From Escherichia phage vB_EcoM_Shinka, in sequence record MZ502379.1: 64,000 bases of DNA; one strand, given 5' to 3'. This document shows positions 15,871-17,508 of this stretch, one piece after another. Made by a program: the position numbers and the translations under genes. Position 1 is the stretch's first letter. Every line of letters starts with the position of its first letter. The notes beneath the pieces were generated by a model. That model did not search any database, was not told where the DNA came from, and worked only from the letters and a program-made list of their open reading frames with translations.

Positions 15871-16649
15871 TAATTAAAAATATATACTTCATCAGTTCCA
15901 TTCTTTTCTTTGGAATGATATATGTTAAAGACGTATTTTTTATTAAGATGCTTAACATTATATTTTTTAGACCATTCTTTAAGAAGAGTGTTTTCCTTTC
16001 CGTGATGCTCTAAAACATTCGACAGTCCAAATTTTATTCCTCTGTCATTTAAAGAATCTAAAAGATTTAAAAGGTCTTTTTCTTCTTCTTCTGACCAAAA
16101 TTTATTATAATCAGCAACTGTTATAAGATATGGAGGGTCCACATATACAAAATCGCCGTCTAGAATTTTGACATCTTTAAAATGCAATGAACTAAAGATT
16201 ATTTTATCACAATTTTGTTTAAAGTGATTAAAGCGTTTTTCACTATTTTTGTTTATAGTTCTTTTTCCAAACGGAGTAGTAAAATTTCCTTTATCGTTTA
16301 TACGAATCATATTACTAAACCCGTGAAAATGAAGAACATAAAGTAAAAGAGGATCTCTAGTTTTATTATAATCTTCACGTAATTTCAAAAACTCTTCTTT
16401 TGATGTTTTTGATAGTTTATATTGCTTTATTACTTTTAATACGTCATCCCATGATACATTAATAAGACGCTTATACATTTCAATAATTGGTTCTTGAATA
16501 TCATTGGCCAATACAGGACCATTGACGTTCAAAGACACTGATAAACCTCCACAAAATAAATCCACGAATCTGTCATATTTTGGAAAATGAGGCTTAAGTT
16601 CAGGTAATAATGACTGTTTATTACCTGTATACGCGATAGCTCCTAGCAT
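15870..16649 (-). CDS. dam: DNA adenine (GATC) methyltransferase Dam (259 aa)
   Basis: [19 protein letters not shown]...FCGGLSV (AdoMet motif) and DPPY catalytic motif; matches T-even Dam. Confidence 0.95.
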
Positions 16650-17209
16650 TATATTCTCTCATTTATTGCAGCAAAAAACGAATTATATAATTCTTCATCA
16701 TATGTATTTGATAGTAATACTAACACGTTTTGTGATTTAGCATATTCATTAAACCTTGCTTGGATGGTTGGATTATCAGTAAATGATTCTCTTTTTGTCC
16801 ATTTATTACGTGGATAATATCCGCATGGCAAAAAATCTAATATCATCAATGACACAGGGTTTTCAGTTTTTGTGTATTCTTTTAATTTCTCTTTATCTTC
16901 TAAATATATTCCAACCGAATCAATAGCTGTACCTCCACCAACTTGGTGTTTAATTTCAATTATATGCTTTTTACCGTTGCGAGAAATAACAATATCAAAT
17001 CTTCTAGTACGCTTCTTAGTTATAAAATTAGAACAAAACAAATTATTTGATTTTTCAGTATCATCGGTTAAAACCATTTTTTCTTGATAACTAACTGAAC
17101 AATCAGTGAAATATTCTTTTACTTTATTAAGTATGAAATTTTCAACTACGGCAGATATTTTATATGAATCTCCGTTTAAAGCCATTTCATGCACAATTTT
17201 ATTAATCAT
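16649..17209 (-). CDS. PD-(D/E)xK nuclease-like protein translationally coupled to dam (186 aa)
   Basis: Motif [19 protein letters not shown] (D...ExK on consecutive predicted strands); its stop TAA overlaps the dam ATG as TAATG; own early promoter and GAGGA SD. Confidence 0.55.
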
Positions 17210-17234
17210 TATATCATCCTCAGCAATTTATTTT

Positions 17235-17264
17235 ATAATACCATAACAAGCTGAGAAAGTAAAC
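17235..17264 (-). promoter_or_regulatory. T4-type early promoter for the nuclease-like ORF and dam
   Basis: Minus strand GTTTAC-tttctcagcttgttatgg-TATTAT. Confidence 0.65.
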
Positions 17265-17308
17265 AAATTTATGAAATTTGTGATAAATATTAATTTAAAG
17301 GAGGACAT

Positions 17309-17365
17309 ATGGCACAAAAATTAATGGCACTTGTTAATGCCATAAAAGGTAATAAAAACGTATAG
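17309..17365 (+). CDS. plus-strand mini-ORF (18 aa) with strong SD
   Basis: AAGGAGG 6 nt upstream of ATG; MAQKLMALVNAIKGNKNV; may continue into the next ORF via a frameshift or sequencing error. Confidence 0.25.
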   Translation: MAQKLMALVNAIKGNKNV

Positions 17366-17382
17366 CTTTTACTATTTCTGCT

Positions 17383-17508
17383 ATGGTAGGAATTTTACTC
17401 TGGAACTTTATTTTATCACCAATTGCAATTGCGCATGGTGTTAATATTCCAGTAGTTACTCTTGATACATTCGTAGATCTAGCATTTGCTTTAGTTGGGT
17501 TAATTTAA
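17383..17508 (+). CDS. plus-strand small hydrophobic peptide (41 aa)
   Basis: MVGILLWNFILSPIAIAHGVNIPVVTLDTFVDLAFALVGLI; convergent with and abutting the gene 61 3' end. Confidence 0.3.
   Translation: MVGILLWNFILSPIAIAHGVNIPVVTLDTFVDLAFALVGLI

Follow-up and report, generated by a model that had tools for sequence, protein, structure and literature searches.

Work on the Dam methylase of phages T2 and T4 goes back to the 1960s. What, then, is the role of a gene with the signature of a restriction endonuclease that lies directly upstream of dam? The question is raised by Escherichia phage vB_EcoM_Shinka (sequence record MZ502379.1), of which a stretch of 64,000 nucleotides, referred to here as the window, was analyzed. 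In it dam is preceded by an open reading frame (ORF) for a protein of 186 amino acids, ORF186. We propose that ORF186 may be the endonuclease half of a two-gene cassette resembling a restriction-modification (R-M) system, with Dam as the other half, a reading to which we give about an even chance. It would place a type II R-M-like pair where none was expected, with historical relevance for the Dam enzymes of T4 and T2. The biological role of T4 Dam is described as unknown (PMC4471564), and no description of ORF186 or of an R-M pair in T-even phages was found in the literature. An earlier note on this DNA, made from its letters, had considered such a function undescribed in these phages. That holds for the function and not for the sequence, which M22342, the T2 dam entry of 1988, contains without annotation and which appears as 'hypothetical protein T2_31' in MH751506; with ~150 records carrying ORF186, T2 included, the gene is not unique to this phage.

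The gene and its protein

ORF186 (16649..17209, minus strand) is part of the 41-61-dam-56 early gene cluster of Tequatrovirus. The dam gene that follows it (15870..16649, minus strand) encodes a Dam-family GATC N6-adenine methyltransferase of 259 amino acids (TIGR00571, E 1.4e-69) with 100% identity to T2 Dam. The signals read earlier from the letters are present: the stop codon of ORF186 and the start codon of dam overlap as TAATG, sharing base 16649, and a GAGGA Shine-Dalgarno sequence is found at 17221-17217, 7 nucleotides upstream of the ATG (17209-17207). That ORF186 is a real coding sequence, as had been supposed, is documented by relatives with 35-99% identity and by a PHROG family of its own (phrog_8706, E 6e-116). 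The ratio of nonsynonymous to synonymous substitution rates (dN/dS) is 0.19-0.33 in comparisons with MX01, KPV15, a metagenomic homologue and T2; hence, ORF186 is under purifying selection.

The early promoter attributed to the gene has fared less uniformly. A sigma-70-like site (TTTACT-17-TATTAT, with an upstream TG and a GTTTAC-type −35 box) does occur before ORF186-dam at 17263-17235 on the minus strand, and a predicted early promoter is annotated at the same place in the GenBank entries of the relatives JB75 and fPS-65. As a class, however, matches to the promoter consensus are no more frequent than in shuffled sequences (11 observed against 11.8 expected), so the promoter of ORF186 is a prediction made plausible by its position only. 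On the other side of this site a terminator-like hairpin followed by a T-run (17324..17343, minus strand) lies downstream of gene 61, at a place where a terminator is annotated in fPS-65; such hairpins number 3 against 0.7 expected. It is predicted to separate the primase transcript from the ORF186-dam unit, and from this layout a shared promoter and a single transcription unit for ORF186 and dam are inferred.

The D...ExK restriction-like signature noticed earlier is located at amino acids 70-88 (D72, E85-x-K87), and structure prediction places it in a nuclease fold. The AlphaFold2 (AF2) model of ORF186, with a predicted local distance difference test score (pLDDT) of 79.4 and a predicted template modelling score (pTM) of 0.78, has the alpha-beta-beta-beta-alpha-beta topology that is the core of the PD-(D/E)xK superfamily, and Foldseek agrees with a restriction-endonuclease-like fold. 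As in that superfamily, acidic and lysine residues are carried by strands beta2 and beta3 and a glutamate by a helix: in the model E23 is placed on the first long helix (15-33), D72 on strand 67-77, and E85 and K87 on strand 80-88. Among 8 aligned sequences, down to ~35% identity, the residues E23, R69, D72, K81, H82, E85, K87, H88, Q89, G93-S98 (the GTAIDS loop) and D125 are invariant. At the level of the predicted structure, ORF186 is thus shown to be built like a small type IIP restriction endonuclease, in its fold as well as in its invariant catalytic residues.

Orthodox type IIP restriction enzymes head the structural matches, the nearest structure being that of MunI (C/AATTG). ORF186 resembles MunI and the small EcoRI-class type IIP enzymes in size (~200 amino acids) and in having a single PD-(D/E)xK domain; since MunI itself has ~200 amino acids, the ~190 of ORF186 are long enough for a complete enzyme of this type. 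However, identity to MunI is only 11-12%, with no sequence-family relationship, and the recognition sequence of ORF186 is not inferable from this likeness. Direct searches with ORF186 returned nothing useful in the PDB and only noise matches in NCBIfam. No curated family claims the protein, the only family matches, weak and below threshold, being to type II enzymes with DpnII in first place, and phrog_8706 is labelled 'unknown function'. An exhaustive search of 1.84 billion representatives with a hidden Markov model (HMM) and a second profile search gave about 10 true relatives and no bridge from the ORF186 family to bacterial families; among 5.8 billion clustered proteins the relatives likewise number about ten. 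The family phrog_8706 is a new, phage-restricted family of putative small restriction-like nucleases.

Linkage and distribution of the pair

A homologue of ORF186 stands directly upstream of a Dam-family gene (PF02086) in 10 of 10 divergent lineages, down to 35% identity. The ten include the window's own lineage, of which T2 is a close variant with a 13-bp gap between the two genes; in all the lineages but T2 the start and stop codons abut or overlap. The coupling to dam that had been suggested for this phage is conserved in all these lineages and in at least three genomic contexts. In the Dhakavirus MX01 the pair occupies the same locus as in Tequatrovirus, between genes 61 and 56, whereas in the Klebsiella Jiaodaviruses KPV15 and Lion_ER11 it is found elsewhere, between rIIB/denB and ndd/gene 39. 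The metagenomic contigs examined (those of P0002, P0004, P0005, P0006, P0009, P0011 and P0013) all carry the pair, which in the contig of P0013 is directly upstream of a rIIA homologue. Compared with the pair of the window, nuclease and methylase lose identity in step (nuclease/methylase 64/76, 57/72, 49/64, 43/63, 35/56 and 35/53%), the nuclease evolving faster than the methylase. As in R-M systems, the endonuclease gene is adjacent to, and co-inherited with, the methyltransferase gene: the two have been inherited, lost and relocated together.

T4 provides a different state of the locus. The earlier note had stated that T4 has no gene of this size between dam and 61 and had taken the gene of the window for an apparent insertion. 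The statement is right, the T4 interval being a 309-bp gap without a gene, and the interpretation has to be reversed. In the pairwise alignment of the dam-61 interval T4 lacks the segment 16729..17276 of the window (548 bp), which is bounded by 8-bp direct repeats, TTTGTGAT, at 16729-16736 and 17277-17284, one copy being left in T4. The deletion takes out codons 1 to ~160 of ORF186 together with the promoter-like site. The last ~80 bp of the gene (16649..16728, minus strand) persist as a remnant, no longer coding, immediately before T4 dam, where tblastn matches amino acids 159-179 of the 186 in T4 records. Because the 3′ end of ORF186 is retained and the deletion is bounded by repeats, T4 represents the derived state, and insertion of the gene into a T4-like backbone is ruled out.

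The T2 allele of ORF186 has 181 amino acids, an altered C-terminus (…SFLLQ*) and a stop codon 13 bp from the dam ATG (MH751506; positions 1990-2065 of the piece compared), both changes being due to a 1-bp deletion in a T-run. The T4 remnant (positions 3140-3160 of the T4 piece compared) has the same 1-bp deletion, which indicates that the T4 deletion arose on a T2-like allele.

The distribution of the three states was surveyed by record counts, uncorrected for phylogeny, in ~500 Tequatrovirus records matching the locus. ORF186 and dam are both present in ~145 records (~29%), T2 among them; dam only, as in T4, in 33 (~7%), all with the exact T4 junction; and neither gene in ~320 (~64%), including RB14, RB18, RB9 and AR1, gene 56 then abutting a small plus-strand ORF next to gene 61. 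The count of full-length ORF186 matches, 154, agrees with the 145 matches for ORF plus dam, since 9 of them are non-Tequatrovirus or partial entries. ORF186 without Dam was not seen in any of the ~500 records. On these counts the loss is asymmetric in the manner of R-M genes, of which the methylase may stand alone and the endonuclease may not. The borders of the polymorphism are sharp, in genomes otherwise 95-99% identical: homology to RB14 ends at ~15844 on one side and at ~17297 on the other, the limits of a 1.45-kb nuclease+dam cassette (15844..17297). In the population the unit of insertion and deletion is this whole cassette, absent from phages of the RB14/AR1 type.

A clean presence/absence polymorphism with sharp borders is also what a selfish endonuclease of the homing type would leave. 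Such an enzyme would cut the 'empty' 56/61 junction, or a site nearby, in cassette-less phages, and mixed infection would drive copying of the cassette as in the intronless homing of T4 SegF, with Dam copied along either as a passenger or as protector of the donor's own site. In T-even phages the neighbourhood of gene 56 is known as a hotspot of homing, segF being located there in T4, and ORF186 shares with the free-standing homing genes of the SegF type the character of an optional nuclease gene of the same region, present or absent among close relatives. However, a site-specific enzyme would need retargeting in each of at least three unrelated contexts; Dam, as a passenger, would not be expected to be inherited so strictly with the nuclease or to diverge in step with it down to 35% nuclease identity; and structurally ORF186 is matched best by orthodox type IIP enzymes, not by homing enzymes. 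SegF-type genes encode GIY-YIG or HNH folds instead of PD-(D/E)xK, the Pfam scan of ORF186 having revealed no GIY-YIG, HNH or LAGLIDADG signature, and they differ also from ORF186 in that the latter is strictly linked to a methylase and moves with it. We regard homing as unlikely. Of the functions offered in the earlier note (R-M-like, exclusion or homing), it is the R-M-like one that the pairing with Dam supports best, and homing is the one disfavoured by the several contexts and the type IIP matches.

The same data bear on the possibility that the product is no nuclease at all, being instead a DNA-binding or regulatory protein, or a decaying relic of a restriction enzyme, that tunes the expression of dam or the activity of its product. 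The gene can be dispensed with, being absent from 70% of Tequatroviruses; its C-terminus is frameshifted in T2; the family is tiny, with ~12 matches in the 1.84 billion representatives; and inactive PD-(D/E)xK derivatives are known. It is difficult to reconcile such a role with the invariance, across relatives of 35% identity, of the four catalytic residues and of the surrounding motif (R69, K81, H82, H88, Q89 and GTAIDS), or with the dN/dS values, and a relic would not be expected to keep overlapping start and stop codons in 10 lineages. This explanation is judged decidedly unlikely.

A proposed restriction-modification role and its alternatives

Taking into account that: (i) ORF186 has a restriction fold with intact catalytic residues; (ii) it is under purifying selection; (iii) it abuts or overlaps the methylase gene in a probable operon; (iv) the pair moves as a unit, and (v) its loss is asymmetric, ORF186 appears as the endonuclease partner of Dam. 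In the model proposed, ORF186 would be an active Mg-dependent DNA endonuclease, probably a homodimer, whose activity, potentially lethal, would be restrained by Dam methylation, with Dam as the antidote. The target would be GATC, or another Dam-type site, without N6-methyladenine (m6A). The payoff would come from cutting unmethylated DNA in the infected cell, be it that of co-infecting dam-less relatives or other foreign DNA, from selfish maintenance of the cassette, or from both. T4 Dam has the same methylase gene at the same locus as the window, which would represent the non-orphan state, whereas T4 Dam would be an 'orphan' left after the 548-bp deletion of its nuclease partner. The comparison suggests that T-even Dam perhaps began as half of a phage-borne restriction-modification pair.

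Dam-type sites lacking m6A are the most likely target, while GATC itself is proposed with lower confidence than the R-M relationship. The suggestion is based on the specificity of the partner and on a weak, collinear and identically spaced similarity to DpnII. Among 24,736 Pfam models the best match of ORF186 is DpnII, a GATC enzyme (E 0.0045, 16.8 bits), and 4 of 8 members of the ORF186 family match the same model (best E 8.3e-5). The PADLOC model REase_II, for a type II restriction endonuclease (REase) of DpnII length, matches ORF186 with E 9e-5 and the best family member with 5e-6. An alignment of the DpnII family was built from the database sequences returned by a search seeded with a pneumococcal DpnII sequence, which was verified by its match to PF04556 at 336 bits and its 99% identity to a database protein (P0018). 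In the HMM of these DpnII relatives, positions 141-226 align almost gap-free to amino acids 13-98 of ORF186, pairing E23 with E152, D72 with D201 and E85 with E214 at identical spacings of 49 and 13 residues.

Comparison with the DpnII/MboI-type GATC systems (PF04556 plus DpnM) extends this likeness. Their methylase belongs to one family with that of the cassette and shares its GATC specificity (TIGR00571 Dam), their core motifs (the xENxx helix, RFDxVI, xIExx and GxG) are collinear with those of ORF186 at identical spacing, and the core secondary-structure elements follow in the same order. The differences are in size, with 186 amino acids against 288, the N-terminal half being missing from ORF186; in the catalytic motif, ExN in DpnII and ExK in ORF186; in the organization of the cassette, in which the nuclease precedes the methylase and there is no second methylase; and in distribution, ORF186 being found only in T4-like phages and its specificity being putative.

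Several observations weigh against ORF186 as a GATC enzyme guarded by Dam. The match to DpnII does not reach the Pfam gathering threshold of PF04556 (23 bits), and BanI, the second match, scores nearly as high. The hhalign comparison of ORF186 with the alignment of DpnII relatives (P 4.4e-4, 34% probability) covers 34 columns only, around the generic catalytic hairpin; ORF186 aligns to positions ~141-239 of the DpnII-type profile and not over the full ~280-amino-acid architecture, since it is without the ~150-amino-acid N-terminal part. The nearest PDB neighbour of the DpnII model is BstEII, not MunI, so that structure provides no specific tie between DpnII and ORF186. Common ancestry of the two is suggestive, not established. 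At the gene level, a frameshift has altered the C-terminus of the T2 allele, which no longer overlaps dam. Finally, there are difficulties of biology. Methylase-deficient T2 mutants have been reported viable. The usual hosts are Dam+, so a GATC enzyme sensitive to methylation would leave their DNA uncut. Methylation of GATC is incomplete in T4 DNA, which contains glucosylated hydroxymethylcytosine (hmC) (PMC4471564); phage DNA would then be protected largely by the cytosine modification, and Dam would be less needed as an antidote.

The last two points would be natural for an enzyme of the opposite preference, a modification-dependent or cytosine-specific nuclease acting on host-type DNA, e.g. 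on Gm6ATC in ordinary cytosine DNA, as part of a module for degradation of host DNA. The mark would be set or completed by Dam, with the glucosyl-hmC phage DNA immune to the nuclease. Dam+ hosts offer many targets to a methyl-dependent enzyme and none to a methyl-sensitive one, the phage DNA is shielded by glucosylation of hmC and only partly methylated at GATC (PMC4471564), virus-encoded m6A-dependent restriction enzymes such as HHPV4I exist (PMC10101028), and strict linkage to Dam fits equally. Nevertheless, ORF186 consists of one catalytic domain and resembles neither DpnI nor other known methyl-reading domains (SRA, winged helix); such weak signal as the sequence gives favours DpnII, an enzyme blocked by methylation; and loss of the nuclease with retention of the methylase is the classical signature of toxin and antidote. 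A methyl-dependent nuclease is therefore considered quite improbable.

The cassette can also be compared with known viral systems. The chlorovirus PBCV-1 encodes R.CviAI and M.CviAI (A579L/A581R), so that a lytic virus has its own GATC adenine methylase within a viral R-M pair (PMC7248222). By analogy, this GATC pair is the nearest functional counterpart of the ORF186-Dam cassette, the nearest sequence family being DpnII and the nearest structure MunI. PBCV-1 is, however, a virus of eukaryotic algae whose host DNA is without methylation, while the hosts of the ORF186 phages are Dam+ and the phage DNA is hmC-glucosylated; hence, the target must differ from that of the CviAI case. The use of virus-encoded restriction enzymes against other viruses has been described (PMC10101028). 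In its strongest form the proposal would be that T-even Dam is the antidote half of a phage GATC R-M weapon, not a free-standing anti-restriction or epigenetic enzyme, with which phages of the T2 type cut unmethylated GATC in dam-less co-infecting relatives or other invaders. We consider this form doubtful. If it were true, the long-unknown role of Dam would be explained, the orphan Dam of T4 would be a disarmed remnant, and restriction of phage by phage would be one cause of the extreme scarcity of GATC in these genomes.

The depletion itself is pronounced. GATC is the lowest of all 256 tetranucleotides, with 65 sites observed and 201 expected (obs/exp 0.32; maximal-order Markov model, 64-kb window), the next palindrome being TCGA (obs/exp 0.60). 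Three GATC sites occur in 15000-18600 and none inside ORF186. In PMC4471564, citing Deschavanne & Radman 1991, GATC depletion in enterobacterial phages is ascribed to methyl-directed mismatch repair. Given this explanation, and since cassette-less relatives share ~95-99% of the genome, the depletion is not attributable to the cassette.

Mismatch repair leads to one more reading, in which ORF186 would serve repair or recombination as a nuclease guided by GATC methylation, a marker of strand or age. It would be, for example, a MutH-like nickase on hemimethylated sites or a structure-specific enzyme, cooperating with Dam in phage DNA metabolism. The depletion of GATC and its published explanation would fit, as would the location of ORF186 inside the replication gene cluster 41-61-dam-56 and the presence of the PD-(D/E)xK repair nucleases Vsr, NucS, Hjc and Bax1 among its structural neighbours. 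The top structural matches are orthodox restriction enzymes, though, sequence searches link ORF186 neither to MutH/Sau3AI nor to Vsr or resolvases, and it is the linkage to Dam that is conserved and not the position in the genome. Such a function is highly improbable.

In phages of the T2 type dam comes second in a conserved pair of nuclease and methylase genes, most relatives of T4 being without both. The question of why T-even phages have Dam becomes concrete and cheaply approachable, and both genes, methylase only and neither gene constitute a natural three-state system for R-M modules in virulent phages with hypermodified DNA, including possible exclusion of phage by phage.

Neighbouring genes and other variable sites

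Over 15800-17600 the window shares 99.9% identity with phages such as vB_EcoM-fFiEco06, JB75 and PYps14T. Along the minus strand, gene 41 is followed by dmd, 61.4, sp, a short 61.2-like gene, 61.1, primase gene 61 (17505-18533), ORF186, dam and gene 56 (15291-15824). A second variable site is situated 1 kb from the cassette, between soc and gene 56. T4 has there segF, which encodes a GIY-YIG homing endonuclease (positions 1107-1781 of the T4 piece compared); the window is without segF, soc (14977-15222) almost adjoining gene 56 (window 15222-15291), and in relatives the spot is occupied by other small ORFs (g029c/g030c of fPS-65, RB14ncORF029c). The cluster shows another length polymorphism at the 61.2 position, where the gene of the window (18702-19058, minus strand) encodes 118 amino acids ('RB32ORF033c, similar to gp61.2') against 208 in T4, and AR1 has both versions in tandem.

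On the plus strand a small gene at 17309-17508 is convergent with gene 61; AAGGAGG provides it with a strong ribosome-binding site, and it corresponds to a hydrophobic protein of 66 amino acids (phrog_2024, 'RB32ORF030w / RB69ORF029w'). The hairpin at 17324-17343 (minus strand) falls inside the 5′ end of this ORF, so that the same sequence would be coding on one strand and a terminator on the other. Near-identical relatives have 6 A in a run of the gene that has only 5 A in the window (17354-17358). The 66-amino-acid frame is consequently broken after 18 codons, leaving only an ORF of 41 amino acids (17383-17508), which reflects either a real frameshift or a sequencing error in the homopolymer. 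In T4 the 66-amino-acid ORF is intact, though unannotated in NC_000866.

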